DNA of 64,000 nucleotides from positions 13,698-77,697 of the forward strand of contig CAWIYM010000006.1 in the NCBI GenBank assembly GCA_963840325.1. The letters run 5' to 3'. Position 1 is the stretch's first letter. Each line of letters opens with the position of its first letter. Below, in pieces: positions 1,998 to 43,914 of the stretch. The notes below the pieces were generated by a model that was not told where the DNA came from, did not search any database, and saw only the letters and a list, made by a program, of their open reading frames with translations. The position numbers and the translations under genes were made by a program. The DNA comes from Candidatus Bathyarchaeota archaeon. Its GTDB lineage: Archaea; Thermoproteota; Bathyarchaeia; Bathyarchaeales; Bathycorpusculaceae.

Positions 1998-2408
1998 TTA
2001 TGAACTGCGAAGAACTATCATTGTGTTAGTTTTCATAATGCCTTCAACTCGCCGGATTTTCTCAATGCACTCGTTAACTTCTGTAACATTCATTCCGCTA
2101 ATAACTGATACGATGTCATACTCACCTGTGACCTCATAAACGGTTTCAACGTTAGGGATAGCTTGGATTTTTTTTGAGACTTCTTGGGTTGGGTAAGCTG
2201 GGTTGGTAGCGAGTAGTGTTATCGCTTGGGCACCTTCTGCTAGACCGATTTTAACGGTGAATTTCTTGATGACGCTTTCGTCGGTTAATATCTTAATTCT
2301 TTTACGGACTGCGCCTTCTGATAAGTTTACTTTGGCACCTATTTCGCCGTAACCTGCTCTTGCGTCGTCTTTTAGAATTTTTATGATTTGTTTGTCCTTT
2401 TCATCCAT
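1998..2408 (-). CDS. Lrp/AsnC family regulator (LysM-like), divergent from lysW
   Basis: MDEKDKQII..LSEGAVRKRI HTH and YEVTGEYDI RAM motif; start taken at ATG 2408. Confidence 0.9.
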   Translation of the reverse strand: MDEKDKQIIKILKDDARAGYGEIGAKVNLSEGAVRKRIKILTDESVIKKFTVKIGLAEGAQAITLLATNPAYPTQEVSKKIQAIPNVETVYEVTGEYDIVSVISGMNVTEVNECIEKIRRVEGIMKTNTMIVLRSS

Positions 2409-2552
2409 TTTTTCAGCCGATTCACTAGTCGTTTGCAAAAATTTAACGCTTTCCATCTTTAACATCGGAGATTAGAACGTATTTCGTTATGCTGGAGCGT
2501 TTATAGTCCGTTTTTTCATAACAAAAGAAACAAAAAAACTGCACCAAATAGA

Positions 2553-2597
2553 ACATTAAGAGTCCAAGTTGTAACAAATAAGTCAAAATGTTTAAAA
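2553..2597 (+). promoter_or_regulatory. Promoter of lysW operon: semi-palindromic operator-like box abutting TATA box TTTAAAA
   Basis: GTAACAAATAAGTCAAAATGTTTAAAA (2571-2597) matches 30222-30248 at 24/27 positions. Confidence 0.7.
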
Positions 2598-2655: not shown

Positions 2656-2862
2656 ATGATTAAACCCGTAAACTCAAACCAATCGAACGTAAAGGCAAAA
2701 TGCCCCGACTGCGACGCAGAACTTGACGTTCCAGCAGACACAGAGAAAGGCGAAATCGTAAGTTGCCCTGGCTGTGGACTTGAACTCGAAGTTAAACAGA
2801 TGAAATGCGGCTGCGTTGACCTTCAAGAGTTAACAATTGAAGGGGAAGACTGGGGCGAATAA
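2656..2862 (+). CDS. lysW: LysW amino-group carrier protein
   Basis: CPDC/CPGC zinc ribbon and diagnostic C-terminal EDWGE. Confidence 0.97.
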   Translation: MIKPVNSNQSNVKAKCPDCDAELDVPADTEKGEIVSCPGCGLELEVKQMKCGCVDLQELTIEGEDWGE

Positions 2863-2937
2863 ACAGTATCGAACAACCCACTTTCTAACAGAAAATCACC
2901 TTTTTAAGGCATCATTTTTTAATGGGAGCGTAAAGCG

Positions 2938-4122
2938 ATGAGCATTGCACTTTTGTATGAGCGCTCGGAAAACGACGAAAACGGCATAAAGCTCACCGCC
3001 AAACAGCTCGATATAGATTTAACATTCATTCCATTCCGAAAAATTGCCTTGTCTATTTCCAAAGAGGGTTTCAGCGCCAAAACAAAAGGCAAAGACTACA
3101 CAGGCATCCTCGAAAACACAAAGGTTGTGATTAACCGCGCTCAAAGCAAAAATCGGCGCCTCCAAGCCTCATACATCATGGAGATGCTCGGCAAAAAAAC
3201 CCTCAACTCCTCCCAAATCGAATTCGTGTGTTACAGCAAACTACGTACCCTTTTAAATCTGCACAAAGAGGGCATCCCAATTCCCAAAACCATCTTTGTC
3301 CCATGCGACGCAACGGACACGATGAAGAATGGACGGGAAATCCACAACGAAAAAGATATAGCTGACCTATTCGAGGCAGAAATTCCCATAGCGGAAGGCA
3401 TCGTGATCAAAGCTGACGCTGGAACCCATGGCAAAATGATTATGCTCTCCCAAAACCGCGAGGAACTGGAAGCCAGCATTAAAGAAACCAAACCTTCAAT
3501 AATCAACCCCATCGGAGTGGTCGCTCAGGAACTTGTCCAGAAATGGTTCTACGATCTACGCATCATAGTTTCAAAAGAGAAAGGAAAACAACCCGTTTGC
3601 TACCACACCTCAATGGCGCGTGCAGGCTTCAAAGATTTCCGGACCAACACTTTCCTTGGCAACCTTGTTTTCCACGCTAAACTTCCACTGAGCATTCAGG
3701 AGTTAGCGGTTAAATGCGGCAAAACCCTGGGAAAAGGTAGTGAAGCTTGGATTTTCGCTTTAGATGCTATGGTGAACGTTGGCGACAACAAGAACGCTAA
3801 CGACGCTTATCTGAAAAGCCAGCTGGATTCAGCTGCACATGCCTTTGTTTCTGTCCAAAATGTTAAGGCAGATGAGACGCGTCTAACAGATTTCGAGTCT
3901 TGGACCAGCAAGTTAGAGAAAGCCTTCAGTTCCTACAAGAATAGTGCTGCTTACGAAAACATTAAGAATATAATTGAAGAAAATGTAGAAAAAAATAAGA
4001 GCGCCTTGGTGTTTCACGAGTCAAATTCTTGCCCAGAATTCTGGGAGAACACGCGGCTCGCAACGGGACTCAACGTGGCTATCCCCCTACTAAAGGGCGC
4101 TCAAAGCCTAATCGACCATTAA
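2938..4122 (+). CDS. lysX: Divergent ATP-grasp LysW ligase (LysX/ArgX family) with ~70-aa insertion
   Basis: Directly after lysW; GIPIPKT, VAQELV..YDLRII, FRTN and HESNSCPEF..TGLNVA ATP-grasp motifs. Confidence 0.8.
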   Translation: MSIALLYERSENDENGIKLTAKQLDIDLTFIPFRKIALSISKEGFSAKTKGKDYTGILENTKVVINRAQSKNRRLQASYIMEMLGKKTLNSSQIEFVCYSKLRTLLNLHKEGIPIPKTIFVPCDATDTMKNGREIHNEKDIADLFEAEIPIAEGIVIKADAGTHGKMIMLSQNREELEASIKETKPSIINPIGVVAQELVQKWFYDLRIIVSKEKGKQPVCYHTSMARAGFKDFRTNTFLGNLVFHAKLPLSIQELAVKCGKTLGKGSEAWIFALDAMVNVGDNKNANDAYLKSQLDSAAHAFVSVQNVKADETRLTDFESWTSKLEKAFSSYKNSAAYENIKNIIEENVEKNKSALVFHESNSCPEFWENTRLATGLNVAIPLLKGAQSLIDH

Positions 4123-4144
4123 TCAAAACATAGAGGAAAAAGAA

Positions 4145-5197
4145 ATGCGAATTGGAATAATCGGCGGTTCAGGATACGTTGGCAGTGAACTACTAAGACT
4201 GCTGCTTTTGCACCCAGAAGTAGAGGTAACTATGGTTACTTCACGCCAAAGTGCAGGAGAATACGTCTTCAACGTGCACCCAAACCTAAGAGGCTTAACT
4301 CAACTAAAATTCGTGCCCCAAGACACGGCTGAACTCCAGAAGAACTGCGACTTAATATTCACAGCCACCCCACACGGCGGCTCAGTGAACCTTGTCCCCA
4401 AACTCCTTGAAACAGGCCTAAAAGTAATCGACATGAGCGCTGATTTTCGCCTCAAAAACCCAGCTGACTACGACTCTTACTATGGCTGGAAACATGCTCA
4501 TCCAGAAATGCTCAAAGAAGCAGCCTACGGCTTACCTGAACTTCATCGGGAAGAAATCAAAAAAGCCAAACTCGTTGCCTGCCCTGGCTGCATGGCAACA
4601 TCTGCAATCCTCGGCTTAGCACCAATCGTGAAAGCTGGCTTAGTTGATAACAGCAAAATCATAGTTGACCTCAAAGTGGGCTCTTCGGGCGGCGGCAGCA
4701 AACCAAACCTCGCCTCACATCATCCTGAACGTTTCAGCGGCGTCCGCCCCTACCAAGTCACTGGGCACCGGCACACTGCCGAAGTAGAACAGGAACTAAC
4801 AGTATTAGCCAATGAACCAGTAAAAATCGGCTTCACCCCGCACGCAGTTAACATGGTACGAGGCATCCTTGCAACCATCTACGCCTTCCCCAAGCAACCC
4901 ATAACCAGCAAAGATCTCTGGAAAGCACTCCGAGGAATGTATGGCACCGAACCCTTCGTTCGTTTAGTGAAGTACCAGAAAGGACCCTACCAGTTACCAG
5001 ACCCCAAAATTGTCATGGGTACAAACTTCTGCGACGTCGGCTTCGAAATCGACGAACACGCAAACCGACTCATCTTATTCTCAGCTATAGACAACATGAC
5101 TAAGGGTGCCGCAGGACAAGGCGTTCAATGCCTCAACCTACTCATGGGAATAGACGAGACCACAGGCCTTAAGAGCACTGGGTTCCATCCAGCGTGA
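4145..5197 (+). CDS. argC: [LysW]-glutamyl/aminoadipyl-phosphate reductase (ArgC/LysY)
   Basis: GGSGYVGSEL, IDMSADFR, ACPGC catalytic Cys, DNMTKGAAGQ. Confidence 0.95.
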   Translation: MRIGIIGGSGYVGSELLRLLLLHPEVEVTMVTSRQSAGEYVFNVHPNLRGLTQLKFVPQDTAELQKNCDLIFTATPHGGSVNLVPKLLETGLKVIDMSADFRLKNPADYDSYYGWKHAHPEMLKEAAYGLPELHREEIKKAKLVACPGCMATSAILGLAPIVKAGLVDNSKIIVDLKVGSSGGGSKPNLASHHPERFSGVRPYQVTGHRHTAEVEQELTVLANEPVKIGFTPHAVNMVRGILATIYAFPKQPITSKDLWKALRGMYGTEPFVRLVKYQKGPYQLPDPKIVMGTNFCDVGFEIDEHANRLILFSAIDNMTKGAAGQGVQCLNLLMGIDETTGLKSTGFHPA

Positions 5198-5203
5198 TTT
5201 GTC

Positions 5204-6013
5204 ATGTTGCTTGTTATTAAGATGGGTGGAAGCATCCTAAAAGAAGGCGCCTCCACAGATCTAATCGCCGACCTCAAAGAAGTTGCCAAACAAAACAAAA
5301 TTATCCTTGTCCACGGCGGAGGAGTAGAAGTCACCGAAATCGCCTCAAAACTGGGCAAAGAACAAAAATTCATAATCTCACCCGAAGGTTTCCGCAGCCG
5401 CTACACCGACAAAGAAACAATCGAAATCTACACCATGGTTATGGCTGGAAAAATCAACAAGCAAATCGTGTTAGCCCTGCAAAGCCAAGGAATCCCTGCT
5501 GTCGGTTTGAGTGGACTTGACGCTGGAATATTGAAGGCTGAACGAAAAACCAAACTGATCGCAGTGGATGAACGTGGCAGAAAGAAAGTAATGGATGGCG
5601 GCTACACGGGCAAAATTACTCAAGTCAACACTCAACTACTGAATTTGTTACTTGCGAACGGTTACATGCCAATCGTGACCCCTATAGCGTTAAGCCAAGA
5701 CTTTGAGCCGCTAAACGTGGATGGTGACCGAACCGCAGCCATAATTGCAGGCGCACTCAAAGCAGACAAACTAATTCTACTCACTGACGTTGAAGGCTTA
5801 ATGCTCAAGGGCGAACGGGTTCCTAAAATCGCCGCAACCGAAGTCAAAGAAGTGCTTTCCAAAATCGGCGGCGGCATGAGCACCAAAGTCCACGCTGGCT
5901 TGGAAGCGTTAAACCAAGGCGTAAAAGAAGTCCTAGTTACTTCCGGAAAAGTTAAGCAGCCTATTACTTCAGCTCTCAATCATCAGGTTGGTACAGTGAT
6001 AACTAGTGAATGA
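5204..6013 (+). CDS. lysZ: [LysW]-glutamate/aminoadipate kinase (LysZ/ArgB)
   Basis: VIKMGGS, VHGGG, SRYTD, LNVDGDR motifs. Confidence 0.93.
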   Translation: MLLVIKMGGSILKEGASTDLIADLKEVAKQNKIILVHGGGVEVTEIASKLGKEQKFIISPEGFRSRYTDKETIEIYTMVMAGKINKQIVLALQSQGIPAVGLSGLDAGILKAERKTKLIAVDERGRKKVMDGGYTGKITQVNTQLLNLLLANGYMPIVTPIALSQDFEPLNVDGDRTAAIIAGALKADKLILLTDVEGLMLKGERVPKIAATEVKEVLSKIGGGMSTKVHAGLEALNQGVKEVLVTSGKVKQPITSALNHQVGTVITSE

Positions 6014-7217
6014 AAAAACCATAATGGAAACTGAAAACCGCTACTTAGCCAACGTCTTCTCCAAAAAACCAGTCGTGATCACACGCGGAAAAGGCGCGCT
6101 TCTATGGGACATTAATGGACAGGAATATGTTGATTGTGCAAGCAGCTACGGAGTGGCAGCTCTGGGTCATTGTCACCCAAAAGTTGTAGCGGCAATAAAA
6201 GCTCAAGCCGAACAGCTCATCACCTGCCATAGCTGCTACTACAACGATAAACGAGCCGAATTCATAGAAAAACTAGTCAAGATAACACCTAAAGGTTTGG
6301 ACAAAGCGTTCCTCTCCAACAGTGGAGCAGAATCCGTTGAATGCGCCATTAAGCTCGCCCGAAAATTCACAGGCAAACCTGAAATCATCGCGCTAATGGG
6401 TGCGTTCCATGGCAAAACCATGGGTGCGCTTTCAGCGACGTGGGATAAAAAGTACCGCGAACCATTCATGCCACTTATCCCAGAGTTCAAGCATGTTGCT
6501 CCCGACAATGCAGACAAAATTCGTGAAGCCATAACGGACAAAACAGCTGCTGTCCTCATGGAACCGATTCGAGGAGAAGGTGGAGTCCGAGTTCCACAGG
6601 ACGGTTACTTGCAGGCAGTGCGGGAAATCTGCGACGAAAAAGGTGCTCTACTAATTTTCGATGAAGTCCAAACAAGCTTTGGGCGCACAGGTAAGCTGTT
6701 CGGCTGCCAAAACTGGAACGTTACTCCAGATGTTTTGTGTTTAGCGAAACCTTTTGCAGGTGGGTTGCCCATCGGCATAACTGTTGCAAAAGAAAACATT
6801 ATGTCCTCACTTAAAGTCGGCGAACACTCAACTACTTTCAGCGGAAGCCCCCTGGTTTGCGCCGCAGGATGCGCTGCAATCGATGCTCTATTGGAAGAGA
6901 AGCTTGCGGACAAAGCAGAAGTCAATGGCAAATACTTCAAGTCACAGCTTGAAGGGCTGCAGGCGAAACATAAAATCATTAAGGAAGTCCGCGGATTAGG
7001 GTTAATGTTGGGCATGGAATTGCGGTATGATGTACATAACGTAATTTTGAAGACACAAGCAAAGGGCGTTTTAGTGCTGGATGCAGGTAGAACCGTCGTT
7101 CGTTTACTTCCGCCACTTGTTATAGAGAAAGCACAAATCGACAAAGCAATCGCGGTTTTAGACGCAGTTTTGGGAGAAGAAGAGAATGAACGAGCAAGCA
7201 GTACGGTTCCTAACTAA
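6006..7217 (+). CDS. lysJ: [LysW]-semialdehyde aminotransferase (LysJ/ArgD), class III PLP
   Basis: NSGAES, FHGKT, DEVQTSFGRTG, LAKPFAGG (PLP Lys); GTG start overlaps lysZ end. Confidence 0.93.
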   Translation: MNEKTIMETENRYLANVFSKKPVVITRGKGALLWDINGQEYVDCASSYGVAALGHCHPKVVAAIKAQAEQLITCHSCYYNDKRAEFIEKLVKITPKGLDKAFLSNSGAESVECAIKLARKFTGKPEIIALMGAFHGKTMGALSATWDKKYREPFMPLIPEFKHVAPDNADKIREAITDKTAAVLMEPIRGEGGVRVPQDGYLQAVREICDEKGALLIFDEVQTSFGRTGKLFGCQNWNVTPDVLCLAKPFAGGLPIGITVAKENIMSSLKVGEHSTTFSGSPLVCAAGCAAIDALLEEKLADKAEVNGKYFKSQLEGLQAKHKIIKEVRGLGLMLGMELRYDVHNVILKTQAKGVLVLDAGRTVVRLLPPLVIEKAQIDKAIAVLDAVLGEEENERASSTVPN

Positions 7218-8322
7218 CCTCTTAGGCATCTATAGCCCCTCAGGAAAAGAAGAGGACGCAGCCAACTTCTTAGACCTTGAAATGAACAAGATGGGTTTTG
7301 AGGTAGGCAAAGACGCCATAGGAAACGTAATCGGCGTCGTCGGCGAAGGCGACCCAGTCATACTATTGTGCGGTCATATGGATACTGTGGCTGGTCATCT
7401 GCCGCTTCGGATAGAAGAAGGCAAAATTTTCGCCCGTGGCGCCGTAGATGCGAAGGGTCCGCTAGCAGCGATGATTATGGCTGCCGTTGCCGCTGCTAAG
7501 GAGCATGGATTTAAAGGAAAAATCCTTGTTGCAGCAGTCGTTGAAGAAGAAGCTACCAGCCGAGGCGTCAAACACCTAATCACTCAAGGGATAACAGCTG
7601 ACTACGCCGTTTTCGGTGAACCTAGCGGAGTTGAGAACGTGACTATTGGCTACAAAGGACAAATTCAACTTAAAATCGTCCTCAAAACCGAGACTGGACA
7701 TGCCTCTACACCCTGGCTCTACGACAACTCTTTGGAGAAAGCATATGAACTTTGGGAACAAATCAAAAATGCTTCGTCCTATCCTTCACTGGATCCTTCA
7801 GCAAGCCCATATAACGCGGTCACAGCCTGCTTGGTTAAACTTGTGGGCGGCAGAGCCACGTCGGTAGTTCCCTTTGAAGCTGAAATGAACCTTGACATCC
7901 GAGTGCCCATCCAGTTCTCGACAGCTCAAGTTTATGAGCAGATCACAAAGATAATTACAAAATACCAAACTGCCAACCCAAAGACGTCTTTGAAAGCAAC
8001 AGTTCTTGACACGGTCGAACCGTTCGAAGTTAACAAGTCTTCACCACTAGTCCATGTGCTCTCGTCATCTGTCCGTAAAGTGCTAAATAAACCAGCAAAA
8101 CTGCTGCACAAAACAGGAACTGGCGACATGAACATTCTAGGCAAAGCCATGAACCTGCCAATCGTAACTTACGGTCCAGGAGACTCGCATCTCGACCACA
8201 CGTTGGATGAGCATATTGTTATAAGCGAATACTTGGACGCAATTACAGTTTACAAAGAGACGCTCATTAAACTATCAGAGTTGCATAACAACAAAAATAG
8301 CGGCGGTAATCACCCAGCATAA
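7186..8322 (+). CDS. lysK: [LysW]-ornithine/lysine hydrolase (LysK/ArgE), M20 peptidase
   Basis: GHMDTV, RGAVDAKG, EEE, GTGDMN, YGPGD..HT.DEHI. Confidence 0.92.
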   Translation: MNEQAVRFLTNLLGIYSPSGKEEDAANFLDLEMNKMGFEVGKDAIGNVIGVVGEGDPVILLCGHMDTVAGHLPLRIEEGKIFARGAVDAKGPLAAMIMAAVAAAKEHGFKGKILVAAVVEEEATSRGVKHLITQGITADYAVFGEPSGVENVTIGYKGQIQLKIVLKTETGHASTPWLYDNSLEKAYELWEQIKNASSYPSLDPSASPYNAVTACLVKLVGGRATSVVPFEAEMNLDIRVPIQFSTAQVYEQITKIITKYQTANPKTSLKATVLDTVEPFEVNKSSPLVHVLSSSVRKVLNKPAKLLHKTGTGDMNILGKAMNLPIVTYGPGDSHLDHTLDEHIVISEYLDAITVYKETLIKLSELHNNKNSGGNHPA

Positions 8323-29598: not shown

Positions 29599-30177
29599 TT
29601 AACCCACCAAGTTCGACAGAACCTCGTATGTTTTGAGGCTATCTTTTTTCTCGACCACCATGATGGTTTCTGTCCAACAGGAAATGAATTCGATAATGTT
29701 TACGTTTTGCTCAGCTAACAGGGTTGCTAGGAACGCGACAACTCCAGGAGTAGCTTCCAATTCCTCAGGTGAGTGAACAACAATCATAGTGCAATTGTCA
29801 TGTTTGACTAGTGTTGATATGCGTTCCGGCAAGTCGCTCCGGTCAAGCAAGTAAACAAATTTGCCCATTAAGTCAACCTTCATGCCTGTTTGTGAGGGCA
29901 ATTCTTTGCTTGTTATAATGACAGATTTTCGGTCGTAAACAGCTATGTTACTGCGTTTGAGGAGTTGGAGAACTTTTTCCTCCCTTTTCTGCTTATGCTT
30001 TTGCAGTTCTTCTGAGTATCGACGCAGAGCAGCTTTTATGGCGCTGGTATCGCTGGTTTTTAGTTCCTTCTGGATTTGCCTCGATAGCTCGCTTAGATTA
30101 ACAATGCCCTTTTCCAGGGCTTCGAGTAGGTAGGGTTTATTTCGCAGGTGACTTCTGACGTTTTGAGCTACAGTCAT
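29599..30177 (-). CDS. Archaeal ACT-domain protein with N-terminal helical/HTH-like region
   Basis: GIVNLSELSRQI N-terminus; TPGVVAFLATLLAEQNVNIIEFISCWTET ACT-like C-terminus. Confidence 0.8.
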   Translation of the reverse strand: MTVAQNVRSHLRNKPYLLEALEKGIVNLSELSRQIQKELKTSDTSAIKAALRRYSEELQKHKQKREEKVLQLLKRSNIAVYDRKSVIITSKELPSQTGMKVDLMGKFVYLLDRSDLPERISTLVKHDNCTMIVVHSPEELEATPGVVAFLATLLAEQNVNIIEFISCWTETIMVVEKKDSLKTYEVLSNLVG

Positions 30178-30203
30178 GGCGTTCTGTGAATGTATCAAAT
30201 GGG

Positions 30204-30248
30204 ACATTTAAAGCTTGTTAAGTAACAAAAAAGTCACAAGGTTTAAAA
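30204..30248 (+). promoter_or_regulatory. Bidirectional promoter between ACT gene and argG with the same operator-like box as the lysW promoter
   Basis: GTAACAAAAAAGTCACAAGGTTTAAAA at 30222-30248; reverse TATA CATTTAAAG at 30205; inverted repeat TTGTTA-AG-TAACAA at 30215-30228. Confidence 0.7.
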
Positions 30249-30304
30249 ATACAGCGCTCAAGGTAAGGGAAACAATTTATAATAAAAAATGGGGGAGCAA
30301 ACAA

Positions 30305-31522
30305 ATAAACGATAAATTTGTATTAGCGTACTCAGGCGGATTAGACACATCCGTGTTAATCAAATACCTCCAAGAAAAATGTAACGCACAAGTAATAACA
30401 GTAACCGTTGACGTTGGCCAACAAGAAGATATCCAAGCGGCTGAGGAAAAAGCCAAAAAACTCGGCGTCATCAAACATTTCTCAATCGACGCCAAAGACG
30501 AGTTCGCTAAAGAATACATTTTCCCAGCAATCAAAGCCAACGCACTCTACGAAGGCAAATACCCTATCAGTACAAGCCTATCCAGACCATTAATCGCCAA
30601 AAAGATGGTTGAAATCGCCGAAAAAGAAGGCGCAACAAGCTTAGTTCATGGTTGCACGGGAAGAGGAAACGACCAAGTCCGCTTCGACATTACACTCGGT
30701 GCATTAGCTCCAGATATGAAAATTATCGCTCCCGTACGTGAGTGGGGCTTGACTCGCGACGAGGAAATCGCCTATGCAAAAACCAAAGGCATCCCCGTTT
30801 CCAATGCAGCTAAAAAATATAGCATAGACGCAAGCGTTTGGGGACGAGCTATCGAATGTGGCTTACTTGAAGATGCTAGTCAAGCGCCTCCAGACGATGC
30901 TTACGAATGGACCATTGCTCCTGAAAAAGCCCCAGACAAGGCAGAGATAGTCACAATTCAGTTTGAAACTGGAGTTCCCGTTGCTGTAAATGGCAAAAAA
31001 ATGGCTCCGCTCGCATTAATTGAAGAAGTCAATAAAATTGCAGGAAGAAATGGCGTTGGCCGTATAGACCACATCGAAGACCGTATAGTTGGTTTGAAAT
31101 CTCGTGAAGTTTACGAGTGCCCCGCGGCAACAGTGATTTTGGAAGCGCACAAAGACCTTGAAAAAATGGTCATGACGCGACATGAGGTTCTCTTCAAGCA
31201 GCAAATCGATGCAGAATGGGTATTTTTAGCCTACGCTGGATTGTGGGTTGACCCCTTAAAAGATGACTTAGATGCCTTCATCAATAAATCCCAAGAAAAC
31301 GTCACAGGCGAAGTCAAACTAAAACTATACAAAGGCGGCCTCCAAGTCATCGGACGCAGCTCACCAAACTCACTCTACGACAAAAACCTAGCCAACTACA
31401 ACATTAAAACCAGCTTTAACCAATCCTATAGCAAAGGCTTCATCGAACTGTGGGGTTTACAAACAAGAATGTACAACTCGCTCAAGAAGGCGAGCAAGAA
31501 ACCCAAGGCAAAGAAAGAATAA
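30305..31522 (+). CDS. argG: Argininosuccinate synthase (start uncertain)
   Basis: VLAYSGGLDTS, HGCTGRGNDQVRF, KSREVYE; start placed at in-frame ATA 7 nt after SD GGGGGAG. Confidence 0.95.
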   Translation: MNDKFVLAYSGGLDTSVLIKYLQEKCNAQVITVTVDVGQQEDIQAAEEKAKKLGVIKHFSIDAKDEFAKEYIFPAIKANALYEGKYPISTSLSRPLIAKKMVEIAEKEGATSLVHGCTGRGNDQVRFDITLGALAPDMKIIAPVREWGLTRDEEIAYAKTKGIPVSNAAKKYSIDASVWGRAIECGLLEDASQAPPDDAYEWTIAPEKAPDKAEIVTIQFETGVPVAVNGKKMAPLALIEEVNKIAGRNGVGRIDHIEDRIVGLKSREVYECPAATVILEAHKDLEKMVMTRHEVLFKQQIDAEWVFLAYAGLWVDPLKDDLDAFINKSQENVTGEVKLKLYKGGLQVIGRSSPNSLYDKNLANYNIKTSFNQSYSKGFIELWGLQTRMYNSLKKASKKPKAKKE

Positions 31523-31571
31523 TTTTCCCTAAATAGAGATAAATGGATGGAGGACGAAAGAAACGTCAAAG

Positions 31572-33074
31572 ATGCTGCATGGAGGAAGATTGGGCAATGT
31601 CAGAGAAGACATTGCAAAGTTTACCTCCTCACGCAAAGATGATGCACGCTTAGCTGACGCTGTTTTAGCCATAAACAAAGCCCATGTCGTAATGCTCATG
31701 GAGCAGAAAATTATTCAGTGGCAAGATGGCACAAAAATTCTCTCGGCCCTCCAAAAACAAGACAGCCAAAAACTCGACCCCAACGCCGAAGACGTACACA
31801 TGGCGGTTGAGGAAGCGGTTTTGGCTGAAACAGGTCCTGATGTAGGCGGAAACCTGCATATTGCTAAAAGCAGAAACGACCAAGTCACGACCGCTATTCG
31901 TATGGCACTGCGCAAAGAACTGCTCAATATGATACAGCAAGTAATAGACATGCAGGAAAGTCTTCTATCAACCGCAAACAAACACACCAAAACCGTCATC
32001 TTAGCCTACACTCACTTGCAACCAGCCCAACCAGTCACCTTTGCACACTATTTGCTCTCACACGTCAACGGGTTAGGACGCGACTTGCAAAGATTGCGGA
32101 ATGTTTACGAACATGTTAATCTTTGCCCTCTTGGCGCTGGAGCATTGGCAACTACAAGTTTTCCCATAAACCGGAAAACAACCGCTGAACTCTTAGGCTT
32201 CGACGCAGTATTAGAGAATTCGATTGATGCAGTTGGCAGTCGAGACTTCATCCTTGAAACCCAATCCGCATTAACTTTGCTTGCAGTTAATTTGAGCCGT
32301 TTAGCTGAAGATCTAATAATCTGGAGTTCGCCAGAGTTTGGCACAGTTGAGTTGCCCGATGAATTCACCTCAACAAGTAGCATCATGCCTCAAAAGAAAA
32401 ATCCTGAAGTTCTCGAAGTTATCCGTGCAAGAGCAAGCTATGCTTTAGGAGATTTTGTAGCTTCAGCCGCCGCCCTCAAGAGCTTGCCATCAACCTATAA
32501 CCTTGATTTCCAAGAGATAACGCCAAAGCTTTGGGCATCAATCGACAACCTTGCTGCTTCTTTAACCATATTCATGAAACTCATTCCTAACCTGAAAGTT
32601 TCCTCAAACGTTGAAGGCAAAGCTGCAGCAGGATTCGTTGGGGCAACTGAACTAGCTAACATGCTCGTGCGCAAGTATAATGTTGCTTTCCGAACATCCC
32701 ACAAGATAGTAGGGGCTTTAGTCAAGGCGCTAATTGATTCAAAACAGACTCTACTCAATGCCACACCTGAATTGCTTAACAAAATAGGTCAGGAAGCGGC
32801 AGGAATCAAATTAACGGTCAAAAAAGCAGACATAGTTGAATGCACAAATCCAGGCAAACTAATCGAAACCTATAAAGTACAAGGCGGTCCATCACCCGCA
32901 GAGGTCGAAAGAGCAATCACATCAACAAACAAAACTCTGACACAGACAAAAACAAACATAACCCAGCTCAAAGCAAACCTTGCTAACGCAGAAAATACCC
33001 TTAACTCGACCGTGGAATCACACTCTCAATCAGAATCTTCCAGAAAAGGAAAACTTAAAAATTCAAAGTCATAG
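31572..33074 (+). CDS. argH: Argininosuccinate lyase (may start at ACG 31563)
   Basis: EDVH, SRNDQ, YTHLQPAQP, SSIMPQKKNP. Confidence 0.95.
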   Translation: MLHGGRLGNVREDIAKFTSSRKDDARLADAVLAINKAHVVMLMEQKIIQWQDGTKILSALQKQDSQKLDPNAEDVHMAVEEAVLAETGPDVGGNLHIAKSRNDQVTTAIRMALRKELLNMIQQVIDMQESLLSTANKHTKTVILAYTHLQPAQPVTFAHYLLSHVNGLGRDLQRLRNVYEHVNLCPLGAGALATTSFPINRKTTAELLGFDAVLENSIDAVGSRDFILETQSALTLLAVNLSRLAEDLIIWSSPEFGTVELPDEFTSTSSIMPQKKNPEVLEVIRARASYALGDFVASAAALKSLPSTYNLDFQEITPKLWASIDNLAASLTIFMKLIPNLKVSSNVEGKAAAGFVGATELANMLVRKYNVAFRTSHKIVGALVKALIDSKQTLLNATPELLNKIGQEAAGIKLTVKKADIVECTNPGKLIETYKVQGGPSPAEVERAITSTNKTLTQTKTNITQLKANLANAENTLNSTVESHSQSESSRKGKLKNSKS

Positions 33075-33087
33075 GTTGAATAGGGCT

Positions 33088-34236
33088 TTGGTCCCACAAT
33101 ATAGCACATCAAACAAAAATAAAAAAGCAATACTGCTTCTTGAAGACGGAACGTCATTTATTGGTAAAGGTTTTGGTGCAACAGGAAAAATCTCTGGGGA
33201 AGTGGTTTTTTCAACCCAGATGGTTGGTTACCCCGAAGCGCTGACCGACCCATCGTATAAAGGGCAAGTTTTAACTTTCACTTATCCAATGGTAGGAAAC
33301 TATGGAGTTCCATCCAACGAATTAAACCTTGGACTTCCACTTTACTTCGAATCCGACCATATCCAGGTCCAAGGGCTTGTCATCCATGAACTCTGTGATG
33401 AACCATTCCATTGGGCATCAACAAGAACCCTCGACAAATGGCTAGAAGACGAAGGCGTGCCAGGCATCTACGGCATAGACACAAGACGCCTAACAAAGAA
33501 ACTCCGAACCCACGGAGTCATGTTGGGTATCATCCAGGTTTTTGAAGCAGGTGAAGAACCCGATTTAGATGCAATTTTAAGAAACGGGAAAAACATCGCT
33601 GATCCTAACCAGACGGACCTAGTTAAGGAAGTCTCAGTCAAAAAGCCGTGTAAATACACCGTTGAAGATGCGAAAAAGAGCGTGGTCTTAATCGACTGCG
33701 GCGTTAAATACAGCATCATCCGCAACCTCCTCAAACGGGGCATCAACGTAACCCGAGTGCCCTATGACACTTCAGCCAGCGAAATTCTCTCTTACAACCC
33801 AGATGGGGTATTTCTGAGCAATGGTCCAGGCGACCCAAAGAAATGCACCAAAACAATCGAGGCAATCCGCGAGTTGTCAGAGAAAGTTCCTTTAATGGGT
33901 ATCTGCCTTGGCGCACAAATCCTGGCATTATCAATGGGCGGAGATACATACAAACTAAAGTTTGGTCACCGCGCCCAAAACCAACCAGCCCTTGACCTAA
34001 ACAATAACCGCTGTTACATCACCACCCAAAACCACGGCTACGCCATAAACTTAGACTCACTAAAGAAAACACCCCTCGAACCCTGGTTTATCAATCCCAA
34101 CGATAAAACCACTGAAGGCATCAAACACAAATGCAAACCTGTATTCGCCGTGCAGTGGCATCCTGAAGCTTCACCAGGACCATACGACACCGAACTGCTA
34201 TTTGATAAATTTGCCAAAACTTTGGAGGCTCCTTAA
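33088..34236 (+). CDS. carA: Carbamoyl-phosphate synthase small subunit
   Basis: LEDGT, GEVVFST, LSNGPGDP, GICLG, QNHGY, QWHPE; TTG start at 33088 or 33076. Confidence 0.96.
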   Translation: MVPQYSTSNKNKKAILLLEDGTSFIGKGFGATGKISGEVVFSTQMVGYPEALTDPSYKGQVLTFTYPMVGNYGVPSNELNLGLPLYFESDHIQVQGLVIHELCDEPFHWASTRTLDKWLEDEGVPGIYGIDTRRLTKKLRTHGVMLGIIQVFEAGEEPDLDAILRNGKNIADPNQTDLVKEVSVKKPCKYTVEDAKKSVVLIDCGVKYSIIRNLLKRGINVTRVPYDTSASEILSYNPDGVFLSNGPGDPKKCTKTIEAIRELSEKVPLMGICLGAQILALSMGGDTYKLKFGHRAQNQPALDLNNNRCYITTQNHGYAINLDSLKKTPLEPWFINPNDKTTEGIKHKCKPVFAVQWHPEASPGPYDTELLFDKFAKTLEAP

Positions 34237-34238
34237 GT

Positions 34239-37200
34239 ATGCCAAAGTTTGATTGGATAAAGAAAGTTCTGGTTCTCGGTAGTGGTGCAATTAAAATCGG
34301 TGAAGCGGCAGAATTTGACTACAGCGGCAGCCAATGCCTCAAAGCTCTTCGTGAAGAAGGCATAGAAACCGTTCTGATTAACCCTAACATTGCCACCATC
34401 CAAACTGACCCCCGCCTCTCAGGCAAAGTGTACCTTCTCCCAGTCACCCCAGAATTTGTGGAGAAAGTCATCGCGAAGGAACGCCCAGACGGTATCCTGC
34501 TGGGCTTTGGTGGACAAACCGCTCTTAACTGTGGCTTAGAACTTGAAAAGACAGGTATTCTGCAAAAGTATAATGTTAAAGTTTTAGGCACACCCGTCCA
34601 AGCCATTGAAGATACAGGCGACCGAGAAAGGTTCCGTCAAGCTATGGAAAAAGCAGGTGTACCATTCCTAAAAAGCCAAGCCGCTACCAGCGTAAAACAG
34701 GCGATGGAGATTGCTAACGATATCGGCTACCCCGTAATGGTTCGTGTAGCTTACACTTTGGGCGGTAAAGGTGCAGGCGTTGCTCACAACATCAAAGAAC
34801 TCAAAGAAATTGTAACCATTGGTATTGCGCAGAGCAGAATCAACCAGGTCCTTGTAGAAGAGTACGTTGGGCACTGGAAAGAAGTTGAGTATGAAGTTAT
34901 GCGTGACTACGCAGATAACTGCTTAACTGTGTGCAACATGGAAAACTTTGACCCCATGGGTATCCACACAGGCGATAGTATAGTTGTCGCACCTTCTCAA
35001 ACCATGACTAACCGCGAATACCACCAGATTCGCTCAATCTCCATAAACGCAATACGCAGCCTCGGCATCGTGGGCGAATGCAATATTCAATGGGCGCTTC
35101 ACCCCAAATCTGAGGAGTGCCGCGTCATCGAAGTAAATTCCCGTATGTCACGTAGCTCTGCGCTCGCTAGCAAAGTCACAGGTTACCCACTTGCTTACAT
35201 AGCTACAAAACTTACTTTGGGCTATACTCTTCCTGAATTAATCAATAAAGTCACCGAAGTCACAACCGCCTGCTTTGAACCAGCACTCGACTACATTACC
35301 GTTAAAATCCCCCGTTGGGATTTGCAGAAATTTAAGAATGCCGATCGACATGTAGGTCCGCAAATGCGTTCCGTTGGCGAGGTCATGGCTATTGGCCGCT
35401 GCTTCGAGGAAGCGCTCCAAAAAGCTGTTCGCATGCTTGATATCGGCAAGATAGGACTCGTCTGCAACCCCGAAGATTCAGAACCCGAGTCTGAAGAGCG
35501 CCTCAGAGATGAGATGGCACACCCCACTGACGAACGCCTCTACAAGATTGCCAAAGCCCTCAAAATCGGCATCCCAATAATGGAGATTTACCGCTTAAGC
35601 GGTGTCGATCCCTTCTTCCTCTACAAGATCCAAAACATCGTTGACATGGAAACAAAGCTTCGCAGCCTAAACCTTGCAGAGGAATCGGCTGTAGAAACCA
35701 TACGCGAAGCAAAACGTTTAGGCTTCTCTGATGAGCAAATTGCTGAATGCCAAAAAACAGATGAATTTACTATTAGAGCATTTAGAAAGAAGGCTAACAT
35801 TATCCCAGCAATCAAACAAATCGACACTTTGGCAGCCGAGTGGCCAGCTAAAACCAACTACCTCTACCTCACATACGGTGGAGACGAAGACGACATAGAA
35901 CTTTCAACAACCGAAAGCAAAGTAATCGTGCTGGGCGCCGGAGTCTTTCGAATCGGTTCAAGCGTAGAGTTCGACTGGTGCGGCGTTAACACCATCTGGG
36001 CACTCAAGAAGAACGGTATAAAAGAAGCCATAATGGTCAACTACAATCCCGAAACCGTCTCAACTGACTATGACGTCTCCGACAAACTCTACTTTGAAGA
36101 ATTAACAATCGAACGTATTTTAGACATCTACGAAAAAGAAAACCCCTTAGGCATAATCACAAGCGTGGGCGGACAAATCCCAAACAACCTATCCATGACG
36201 CTCTCAAAAGTAGGCGTTAAAATTTTGGGCACATCAGCGGAGAACGTGGATTTGGCGGAAGACCGCTCAAAATTCAGTGCACTCCTCGACCAGCTGGAAA
36301 TATGCCAGCCGAGCTGGAGCAAACTCCTCTCAATTGACGATGCGAAACGGTTTGCACAAAAAATCGGTTATCCAGTTTTAGTGCGACCCAGCTATGTCCT
36401 GTCGGGGTCAGCGATGCGTGTCGCCTACAACGAAACGTCACTGGAAAACTTCCTTAACTTAGCCGCAAAAGTCTCACGAGACCATCCAGTAGTAATTAGC
36501 AAATTCATAACTCAAGCCAAAGAAGTCGAAGTTGATGGTGTTTCCGATGGAGAAAACGTTTTTATCGGCGCCATAATGGAGCATGTTGAGAACGCGGGTG
36601 TCCACAGCGGCGACGCAACAATGACTATTCCACCTCAGGCACTCAAAATTGAGGTTCAAAAGAAAATAGAGGAATGCACACAGAGCATTGTGAAGGCCCT
36701 GCAAATTCACGGACCTTACAACATCCAGTATCTCGTAAAAGACGACGTAGTCAACGTCATCGAATGCAACCTAAGAGCCTCCCGTTCCATGCCCTTCGTT
36801 AGCAAGACTCGGGGCATAAACATGATTGAATTAGCAACTTTGGCGATGCTGGGAAAAAAAATTGACAGCATCAAACTTTCTCCCATGACTGTTGCGCCTC
36901 ACGTTGGAGTGAAGGTCCCGCAGTTTAGCTTCATGCGCCTTAGTGGTGCCGATCCAGTTCTGGGAGTAGAAATGCTCAGCACAGGTGAGGTAGCATGTTT
37001 AGGTGAAAACTTTTCCGATGCTTTCTCCAAGGCTTTGCAGTCTGCGGAATTCACTATTCCACCTAAAGATGGCAAAGTGTTCATCAGTGTCGGAGGCGAT
37101 GAGGCGCGCAAGACTAGAGTTGTGCCGATTGCCAAAGCGCTAGCTGAAATGGGCTTCAAAATCTATGCAACCCAACACACCGCTGACGTGCTCAATGCTC

Positions 37201-37514
37201 ATAGCGTCACTGCTATAGTTCTCTATAAGGTCAAAGACGCTCAAGTTAGCCCTAACATAATGGATTACTTGCAGGAACGCAAAATCGATTTAGTCATCAA
37301 CGTACCCATTGCCAATAGACGATCAAGCTTCTCTGACATCCTAACCGACGGCTATATCATAAGGCGCCAGGCAGTAGAATTCAACATACCAGTCATTACC
37401 AACCTACAACTTGCGGCTGCACTCGTCGAAGTTCTAAAGCAGAAAGGACAAAACGGCAACTCGGTTCGAAGCCTAAACGAATACATGGACGACTTACCCT
37501 GGAAACAGTGGTAA
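34239..37514 (+). CDS. carB: Carbamoyl-phosphate synthase large subunit
   Basis: GSGAIKIGEAAEFDYSG, duplicated ATP-grasp halves, C-terminal MGS-like domain. Confidence 0.97.
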   Translation: MPKFDWIKKVLVLGSGAIKIGEAAEFDYSGSQCLKALREEGIETVLINPNIATIQTDPRLSGKVYLLPVTPEFVEKVIAKERPDGILLGFGGQTALNCGLELEKTGILQKYNVKVLGTPVQAIEDTGDRERFRQAMEKAGVPFLKSQAATSVKQAMEIANDIGYPVMVRVAYTLGGKGAGVAHNIKELKEIVTIGIAQSRINQVLVEEYVGHWKEVEYEVMRDYADNCLTVCNMENFDPMGIHTGDSIVVAPSQTMTNREYHQIRSISINAIRSLGIVGECNIQWALHPKSEECRVIEVNSRMSRSSALASKVTGYPLAYIATKLTLGYTLPELINKVTEVTTACFEPALDYITVKIPRWDLQKFKNADRHVGPQMRSVGEVMAIGRCFEEALQKAVRMLDIGKIGLVCNPEDSEPESEERLRDEMAHPTDERLYKIAKALKIGIPIMEIYRLSGVDPFFLYKIQNIVDMETKLRSLNLAEESAVETIREAKRLGFSDEQIAECQKTDEFTIRAFRKKANIIPAIKQIDTLAAEWPAKTNYLYLTYGGDEDDIELSTTESKVIVLGAGVFRIGSSVEFDWCGVNTIWALKKNGIKEAIMVNYNPETVSTDYDVSDKLYFEELTIERILDIYEKENPLGIITSVGGQIPNNLSMTLSKVGVKILGTSAENVDLAEDRSKFSALLDQLEICQPSWSKLLSIDDAKRFAQKIGYPVLVRPSYVLSGSAMRVAYNETSLENFLNLAAKVSRDHPVVISKFITQAKEVEVDGVSDGENVFIGAIMEHVENAGVHSGDATMTIPPQALKIEVQKKIEECTQSIVKALQIHGPYNIQYLVKDDVVNVIECNLRASRSMPFVSKTRGINMIELATLAMLGKKIDSIKLSPMTVAPHVGVKVPQFSFMRLSGADPVLGVEMLSTGEVACLGENFSDAFSKALQSAEFTIPPKDGKVFISVGGDEARKTRVVPIAKALAEMGFKIYATQHTADVLNAHSVTAIVLYKVKDAQVSPNIMDYLQERKIDLVINVPIANRRSSFSDILTDGYIIRRQAVEFNIPVITNLQLAAALVEVLKQKGQNGNSVRSLNEYMDDLPWKQW

Positions 37515-43440: not shown

Positions 43441-43914
43441 TGTATTTCTAAATAGTCTGCAAAAGAAGAAGAAGACGCGCAGTGGAATTTTAGGTAAGCT
43501 TATTTTGGGTTGAATTAGCCGTTTGGGGCTTGGATCATTTACAGAATGTGGGTCTAAAAGGGTTGAAATGGGTTGGGAAGGGCAATTTTTCTTCTTCTTA
43601 AATGAACCCGAAGGAAAATCTTCATGAAAAACTGCACTGGGCTTCAGACTAAGATTAGAGAAATTGTTTTTTTAGTTGAGAAAATCTCGGCAAGCCCACA
43701 AGTCAGTAAATAAGGAAAATGCAAGAAGAATTGGCAAAATGCTGGCTGATTCAATCTGTATTTCCTAAATATTGTGCAAAAGAAGAAGAAGACTCGCAAA
43801 TGCATTTTTGATTGAGCTTGTTTTGGGTTGCTTTTTCAATTTAGGGCTTGTGGCGTTTGCAGGTTGAGTCGGCAGAAGTCGTAAAGTGTCGCAAAAAGTC
43901 CCATCTTCTTCTTC
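43441..43914 (+). repeat. Two diverged direct repeats (43441-43598, 43757-43914), each bounded by AGAAGAAGA...TCTTCTTC
   Basis: TGTATTTC(C)TAAATA..TGCAAAAGAAGAAGAAGAC.CGCA, AGCTT.TTTTGGGTTG and GGGCTTG are shared; both starts and ends are offset by ~316 nt. Confidence 0.7.

Follow-up and report, generated by a model that had tools for sequence, protein, structure and literature searches.

A conserved composite operator-promoter marks a probable small arginine-biosynthesis regulon in a Bathyarchaeota genome and points to a DUF7523-ACT protein as candidate regulator

To our knowledge, the control of arginine synthesis in archaea is largely unknown: archaea have no ArgR, and LysM at the lysW operon of Sulfolobus is the one neighbouring system studied in depth. 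Sulfolobus LysM recognizes sites of the form GTWCG-N5-CGWAC, a 15-bp palindrome, binds directly upstream of the transcription factor B (TFB) recognition element (BRE) at lysW, and responds to lysine and arginine (PMC3597687). Tar (TK0271) of Thermococcus kodakarensis has a different palindrome, TGGACA-N8-TGTCCA, which lies upstream of BRE/TATA and is common to three operons, and the same paper summarizes TrpY of Methanothermobacter thermautotrophicus as repressing itself and, together with its end-product amino acid, an operon (PMC6737238). Here we describe a composite operator-promoter in 64,000 nucleotides of DNA from a Candidatus Bathyarchaeota archaeon (assembly GCA_963840325.1, contig CAWIYM010000006.1, positions 13,698 to 77,697; hereafter the window), where it precedes both the lysW operon and argG-argH-carAB, the latter divergent from the gene for a protein with DUF7523 and ACT domains (the ACT protein). 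Pathway regulons whose operons share an operator close to BRE/TATA are a known kind of system. What appears undescribed is this operator, the family of the candidate regulator and the set of targets (argG-argH-carAB and two lysW promoters), and our searches for DUF7523 and for a Bathyarchaeia arginine regulon returned nothing relevant in the searchable literature.

A preliminary description of the window had reported a 27-bp element shared by the two promoters, and its reading of the DNA was accurate. The 27-mers at 2571-2597 and 30222-30248 are identical at 24 of 27 positions (mismatches at positions 9, 16 and 19), ACATT stands 18 nt 5' of both (at 2553 and 30204), and each site lies between divergent genes: a gene for an Lrp-type regulator and lysW (2656-2862, plus strand) at the first, the ACT gene and argG at the second. 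A pattern covering both 27-mers with at most three mismatches matches nowhere but at these two sites, both in the window and across the 2.59-Mb genome (17 contigs, 89.7% complete). An all-against-all scan of the window returned five direct pairs of 27-mers identical at 24 or more positions, the lysW/argG pair among them; of the other four, three resemble, unchecked, tRNA-type sequence and one is a ~317-bp tandem duplication near 43.4 kb (non-coding, 43447-43473 and 43764-43790, containing GTATTTCYTAAATA..TGCAAAAGAAGAAGAAGAC). Twelve first-order Markov simulations of the window contained no pair at this level. Because the match is unique in the genome and was reached in none of the simulated windows, we consider it real and not the product of chance.

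The 27-bp match is the 3', promoter-proximal part of a shared element of ~58 bp that consists of Box 1, a 15-nt spacer, Box 2 and a TATA box. Box 1 (TGYAYCAAATRGNACA, at 2540-2555 and 30191-30206) is a 16-bp imperfect palindrome; the ACATT reported earlier, present at both sites, is the 3' end of this palindrome. The semi-palindrome GTAAC-N6-GTCA(C) that had been described as touching BRE/TATA is an imperfect inverted repeat, GTAAC-N6-GTCAC, within an element longer than first described. This Box 2 has the general form GTRAC-N6-GTCAC and becomes a perfect inverted repeat, GTGAC-N6-GTCAC, in some sister species. A TTTAAAA TATA box starts 4 nt 3' of Box 2, and by the archaeal promoter consensus the BRE position would comprise these 4 nt and the 3' arm of Box 2. 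The spacer differs between the lysW and argG promoters and drifts among species, and the distance between the centres of Boxes 1 and 2 is constant, at 31 bp, in four promoters. The arms of the two boxes compare as TGTNC-N6-GNACA in Box 1 and GTRAC-N6-GTCAC in Box 2. We also tried reading all boxes as repeats of a single GNNACA or TGT half-site; the fit is suggestive and too flexible to serve as evidence.

At argG, the element also bears on the divergent ACT gene. On the minus strand, the 3' end of Box 1 (ACA) and the TTTAAAG that follows it form CTTTAAATGT (30206-30212), which by its sequence reads as the TATA box of the ACT gene, ~27 nt from the ACT start codon (30177). Box 1 would thus lie between the TATA box and the start codon of the ACT gene.

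Alignment of orthologous promoters from 21 species (argG) and 24 species (lysW) of the genus showed that both boxes are kept at both promoters, with variation in the spacer and in the more distal sequence. At lysW, there is no conservation 5' of Box 1, so the footprint stands out there. A genome-wide scan with a position weight matrix (PWM) found four composite sites far above background, namely those of lysW and argG, one at a second, stand-alone lysW gene (lysW2) and an orphan on contig C3. The lysW2 gene (contig C9; locus L064, 4713-4931, minus strand) encodes 72 residues ending in EGEDWGE, and its promoter (~4985-5045 of L064) carries Box 1, Box 2 and TATA box; lysW2 with its box is intact in genomes G002 and G121 and broken in G012. 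The orphan (contig C3, 188833-188890, minus strand; locus L063, ~4834-4890) is closely similar to the lysW2 promoter and is followed by no open reading frame of 60 residues or more for ~500 nt; it may be what remains of a lost copy of lysW2, or the promoter of an unannotated RNA. Two hits to Box 1 only, on contig C4 (PWM scores 22.4 and 19.9), were rejected as chance because they lie inside coding regions.

Related genomes repeat this picture. Five other genomes of the genus have two or three sites each and no match to a reversed control pattern, the third site being lysW2, and the argG, lysW and lysW2 pattern recurs in four further genera of the same family. Across ten related genomes, the Box 2-TATA pattern occurs two or three times per genome with no hit to the reversed control, and the additional sites that we looked at are again lysW2. 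The element is absent upstream of unrelated genes and conserved at the orthologous promoters both of 23 congeneric species and of other genera. The promoters of argF, which the preliminary description had named as a search target, and of a nearby gltB-like gene carry no box. Of four sites in 2.59 Mb, then, three are at arginine or ornithine genes and one is the orphan copy. The conserved promoters and the specificity across the genome agree with the original proposal that one box joins the lysW operon and argG-argH-carAB, and support the conclusion, drawn from sequence comparison, that the composite marks a small arginine-biosynthesis regulon comprising the lysW operon (ornithine), the stand-alone lysW2 and argG-argH-carAB.

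Assignment of the lysW operon to ornithine, also suggested earlier, is very probably correct. The genome has a lysA scoring above its cut-off, no homocitrate synthase above cut-off, no ArgJ that we could find in an assembly 89.7% complete, and a single ArgB/LysZ-type kinase, which is the one in the lysW cluster; the LysW cluster is therefore the only visible route to ornithine. The only LysW ligase of the cluster (2938-4122) is unusually long (394 residues) and matches LysX and RimK models weakly, with 85 bits against TIGR02144 (cut-off 276).

The preliminary description had left the regulator as either the adjacent Lrp or the ACT protein; comparison across genomes speaks for the ACT protein and against the Lrp. 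Of 201 sampled Bathyarchaeia genomes, we found an ACT homologue in 111 and argG in 151. The ACT gene is adjacent to argG and divergent from it in ~72 of ~92 genomes with a strong hit, in 10 or more families, across a gap of ~95-135 bp (coordinates compared by hand), and the conserved boxes sit in these intergenic regions. The arrangement is that of a candidate regulator gene and an operon in divergent orientation, the putative operator lying in the intergenic region between them.

Sixteen ACT proteins fall into two clades in a maximum-likelihood tree, both with 100/100 support. In all eight loci of clade I (this genome and families f24, f33, f21 and f15), an element resembling Box 2 stands 2 nt from a TATA box; upstream of argG, the pattern TGTAACA-N5-GTCRYAA is a close fit for this genome and f24 and a looser one for f33, f21 and f15, and the clade-I pattern has no match in one f33 genome. 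All eight loci of clade II have TGACCA-N4-TGGTCA over the ACT start and TTGACCAAAAA abutting the TATA box; they come from f7, f11, f5, f12 and, within f1 (the family to which this genome belongs), from three further genera, so that f1 has ACT proteins in both clades. Operator type matches ACT clade in 16 of 16 cases. The ACT protein of this genome is 36% identical over its full length to one from f24, and only 64 C-terminal residues align with one from f7, a family of the same order; similarity of ArgG ranks the two in the opposite order. Because family f1 is split and the ACT and ArgG rankings are opposed, we conclude that the operator follows the ACT protein, and neither taxonomy nor likeness of argG. 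ArgG itself is only ~55% identical between families that share the element.

The placement of the boxes relative to the two genes would suit autoregulation. In f24, the ACT start codon is 3-6 nt from Box 2, which lies between the shared TATA box and the ACT start, and one TATA box seems from the sequence to serve both directions. Where ACT abuts argG in this family, Box 2 alone is present; the separated argG promoters of its genus g46 have a near-perfect Box 1 (TGTTCTAAATAGAACA) as well as Box 2. Four f24 genomes carry the motif at argG only, including both argG copies of genome G203, with no control hits. Where ACT and argG have become separated within the genus of our genome, the ACT gene keeps Box 1 with its TATA box, and argG keeps both boxes (Box 1 at loci L017 and L023).

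The ACT protein matches Pfam ACT_7 (33.5 bits, cut-off 27) and DUF7523 (PF24367; 44 bits, cut-off 27, over profile positions 1-68 of 158 only), and a whole-genome search agrees; the DUF7523 family is also present in Haloferax volcanii. An AlphaFold 2 model built with a 63-sequence alignment is confident (predicted local distance difference test, pLDDT, 96; predicted TM-score, pTM, 0.85) and supersedes a single-sequence model whose C-terminal part was poor (pLDDT 52). Residues 1-75 form three short helices and one long helix in the model; N27 and R53 are invariant in the alignment, and S29 and R33 nearly so, all within the second and third helices. Residues 67-192 resemble VC0802 (Z 13.1, root-mean-square deviation 2.7, 123 residues aligned) and the regulatory domains of aspartokinases (Z 11-12.7), with weaker matches to CASTOR1/2 (Z 6.6-7.0). 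The similarity of the C-terminal part to the C-terminal domain of ArgR is weak (Z 5.9-7.6), and no Pfam or NCBIfam profile of ArgR matches the protein. A homodimer was predicted with a score of 0.61 (best control 0.00), agreement between runs on 73% or more of contacts and partner pLDDT of 81 or higher, through an interface made of the ACT module and the long helix. Of proteins solved as pairs, 20 of 30 reached this mark, as did 1 of 23 solved as single chains; ACT dimers being common among solved structures, likeness to them may account for the pass.

With moderate confidence, we propose that the composite is read by this 192-residue DUF7523-ACT protein, which would thereby control the arginine regulon; its DNA binding, its effector, the sign of regulation and the transcription start sites are what we infer. 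The protein would bind as an ACT-mediated dimer, probably as two dimers on boxes whose centres are three helical turns apart, and its aspartokinase/CASTOR-like ACT module would sense an amino acid, probably arginine or a pathway intermediate. When bound at Box 2, whose 3' arm extends into the BRE position, it could control the use of TFB and the TATA-binding protein (TBP) at the arg promoters; at Box 1, between the TATA box and the start of the regulator gene, the same binding could shut off the ACT gene. In archaea, a box between TATA and start is classically placed for repression. The logic of ArgR and TrpY makes us lean slightly toward arginine-dependent repression; the alternative, in which the ligand-free protein activates as Tar and LysM do, would fit the upstream position equally well. 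At somewhat less than even chances, we further suggest that DUF7523-ACT proteins are unrecognized archaeal amino-acid-sensing transcription factors, the counterpart of ArgR in Bathyarchaeia, that combine an ACT sensor with a small new DNA-binding domain. In many lineages such a protein would act on one TATA box shared by divergent genes and could set the direction of firing, toward its own leaderless gene or toward argG, and in this family the regulon would have grown by copying of the operator onto lysW promoters.

Several observations weigh against the ACT protein as reader. Its N-terminal part has no confident helix-turn-helix (HTH) match and no HTH profile matches it, the domain not having been searched on its own; its best partial structural matches are FF domains and a ribosomal protein (Z ~6), and we found no usable match in an ESM Atlas feature search and no solved relative by sequence, which does not make the fold a new one. 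Between the two clades, the putative recognition helix (NYSxxAR) hardly changes although the operators do; this could fit a shared TGAC/GTCA core with different spacing, or the helix could be one that does not read DNA. Genomic context is mixed as well. SUI1/aIF1 comes next after the ACT gene, on its strand, in f24 (loci L192-L195), and the two are also paired at locus L165, in a 36%-identical homologue away from argG, a hint of a second conserved association for the family. Distant homologues occur in unrelated contexts (Hjc with SUI1; a DDAH-like gene). Four of these (P0122, P0129, P0132 and P0145) have a context that is short or unrelated to argG, one adjoining a DDAH/ADI-like gene. The SUI1 pairing and the unrelated contexts may indicate another role for the family. 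In our genome, thrC, hom (homoserine dehydrogenase) and aspartokinase lie 3' of the ACT gene on the same strand; the ACT gene heads this cluster in the genus, which would also suit a role in the threonine pathway. The concordance of motif and clade is partly inheritance, because related genomes are not independent, and the ACT protein of this genome sits on a long branch (2.62) of the tree. Finally, the two boxes are unlike in half-site and in spacing, and each could have a reader of its own.

The last of these points leads to the alternative that fares best, which we still think unlikely, namely that two or more factors share the module. The ACT protein would read one box and the Lrp or an unlinked regulator the other; at the extreme, an unlinked regulator would read both, and the ACT protein would be a co-regulated metabolic sensor. 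The unlike arms and spacing of the boxes suit this alternative, but the fixed 31-bp distance at four promoters and the shared TGT...ACA-type ends argue against it. Each box does occur without the other, Box 2 where the f24 ACT gene abuts argG and Box 1 with the separated ACT gene in the genus; against this, one half-site, TGACCA, is common to the palindrome and the TATA-proximal element of clade II, pointing to one reader for both. The lack of a confident HTH match and the hint of another role in the conserved ACT-SUI1 pairing also suit this alternative, but no other regulator gene is consistently linked.

We find it decidedly improbable that the adjacent Lrp, acting as a LysM-like multimer, reads both boxes and activates lysW, lysW2 and argG when lysine or arginine is low. 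This protein aligns with positions 1-135 of 136 of the LysM equivalog model NF040947 and scores 166.6 bits, below the cut-off of 180; by sequence, it is a LysM near-orthologue just under threshold. Its gene is divergent from lysW in all 24 species of the genus, the pairing of Lrp with lysW is widespread, and 31-bp phasing suits Lrp multimers in general. Box 2 also occupies the position of the Sulfolobus LysM site, directly upstream of BRE, ending 4 nt before the lysW TTTAAAA of a promoter assigned by consensus. But Boxes 1 and 2 are 16-bp elements with other arms and fail the LysM consensus, and a separate palindrome, GAACGTATTTCGTTA, has the expected ACG-N5-CGT core. It stands ~25 nt upstream of a conserved block at 2435-2454 that belongs to the lrp promoter, and is matched at the equivalent place in same-order genome G040 by CTACGGATTTCGTAG; it is probably the site of the adjacent Lrp, a separate LysM-type input at lysW and at the Lrp's own promoter. 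Neither box occurs between lrp and lysW or between lrp and argG in other families, and it is the ACT gene, rather than lrp, that Box 1 accompanies. Moreover, in four of five f24 genomes the Lrp closest to this one is at most 33% identical, yet Box 2 is kept at argG, and in genus g46 Box 1 is kept there too. In favour of the Lrp, two other families of the order have an Lrp gene divergent from argG, or from argG-lysW (loci L031/L061 in genome G033 and L032 in G027). In G027, argG and lysW are adjacent on the same strand. We saw no ACT homologue in these three loci. The lrp promoter block itself (GCAAAAATTTAACGCTTTCC) is palindromic, GGAAAA...TTTTCC, in sister species.

Very improbable indeed is the absence of any dedicated regulator, with a strong core promoter copied and conserved for basal strength only: the lysW2 and orphan C3 promoters do look like mutual copies, so promoter DNA has been duplicated in this genome, but the composite stands at arginine-pathway genes and at no other promoter in 2.6 Mb, its palindromic arms are kept while the spacers drift, it persists across families with so dissimilar an ArgG, and one box lies downstream of the ACT TATA box, where basal elements are not expected.

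The features of the two loci are collected in Table 1.

Table 1 Operator, promoter and gene features at the lysW and argG loci (positions in the window)
Feature	Position	Strand	Remarks
LysM-like Lrp/AsnC regulator	1998..2408	-	NF040947, full-length; divergent from lysW in 24/24 species
LysM-type palindrome GAACGTATTTCGTTA, core ACG-N5-CGT	2475..2489	.	Conserved in genus; distinct from Boxes 1 and 2
Box 1, lysW promoter (TGCACCAAATAGAACA)	2540..2555	+	Conserved in 24 species; PWM 27.3, second best in genome
Box 2, lysW promoter (GTAACAAATAAGTCAA), imperfect inverted repeat	2571..2586	+	Centre 31 bp from Box 1 centre
TATA box TTTAAAA, lysW operon	2591..2597	+	Invariant in 24 species; lysW ATG 59 nt downstream
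lysW, atypical lysX-like ligase, argC/lysY, argB/lysZ, argD/lysJ, argE/lysK	2656..8322	+	Pfam, NCBIfam
DUF7523 + ACT_7 protein, 192 residues, candidate regulator	29599..30177	-	Pfam, AlphaFold 2 model; divergent from argG
Box 1, ACT/argG intergenic region (TGTATCAAATGGGACA)	30191..30206	+	PWM 30.3, best in genome
Box 2, argG promoter (GTAACAAAAAAGTCAC)	30222..30237	+	Homologous element upstream of argG in f24, f33, f21, f15
TATA box TTTAAAA, argG-argH-carAB	30242..30248	+	Invariant in 21 species
argG (probable ATA start 30305), argH, carA, carB	30305..37514	+	Pfam; start region compared across species

Two further conserved elements, GACATTTCC (2620-2628) and AAGTGACGAA (2640-2649), lie in the leader between the lysW TATA box and ATG; GACATTTCC resembles the right half of Box 1, and AAGTGACGAA may be a ribosome-binding site. 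The ATG at 30289 is out of the argG frame, and the in-frame codon at 30305 is an ATA kept in most species of the genus, so the start codon of argG may be a non-canonical ATA. In two species the codon is ATG or TTG, and GGGGGAG lies 8-12 nt upstream. The RNA runs that we sampled contained 5-8% of the sampled words and are stored as contigs, in which transcript ends are not readable.

These results provide a concrete pair for experiment: a DNA module defined to the base pair and conserved across many Bathyarchaeia, and a candidate regulator from a family to which no function has been assigned and which has members in the tractable Haloferax volcanii. They also add genomic support for the LysW carrier pathway leading to ornithine in these organisms, and illustrate the growth of a regulon by the copying of an operator-promoter module to further genes.

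Among known systems, Tar offers the same overall plan, a pathway regulon in which one palindrome stands upstream of BRE/TATA of several amino-acid operons and the regulator gene is linked to a target operon. Tar, however, controls aromatic amino acids and is thought to be MarR-like rather than a DUF7523-ACT protein, its motif and spacing differ, and activation by Tar was shown experimentally. Here, in addition, one box overlaps the BRE position and a second lies 31 bp upstream. The resemblance to Sulfolobus LysM is in the target, a lysW operon for lysine and arginine synthesis with an operator by BRE, and a LysM near-orthologue and LysM-type box are present at our lysW; Boxes 1 and 2, in contrast, depart from the LysM consensus and persist where no LysM-like Lrp is found, and the LysM target paper does not mention argG (PMC3597687). 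As far as the summary of TrpY goes, it shares with our locus a regulator gene divergent from a biosynthetic operon, with operators in overlapping promoters; by its description, it is set apart in pathway, box (TGTACA) and protein family.

The likeness to bacterial ArgR is one of logic only: an arginine-sensing oligomer, paired palindromes over arg and car promoters, and autoregulation. There is no sequence relationship, the transcription machinery here is archaeal, and the ARG-box consensus is unlike Box 1 or Box 2. The C-terminal 125 residues of the ACT protein, in turn, share the amino-acid-sensing fold of ACT_7/VC0802, the aspartokinase regulatory domains and CASTOR1. Those are enzyme modules or signalling sensors with no DNA-binding part, whereas here the fold is fused to a small helical DUF7523 domain, in a protein whose gene pairs with argG.

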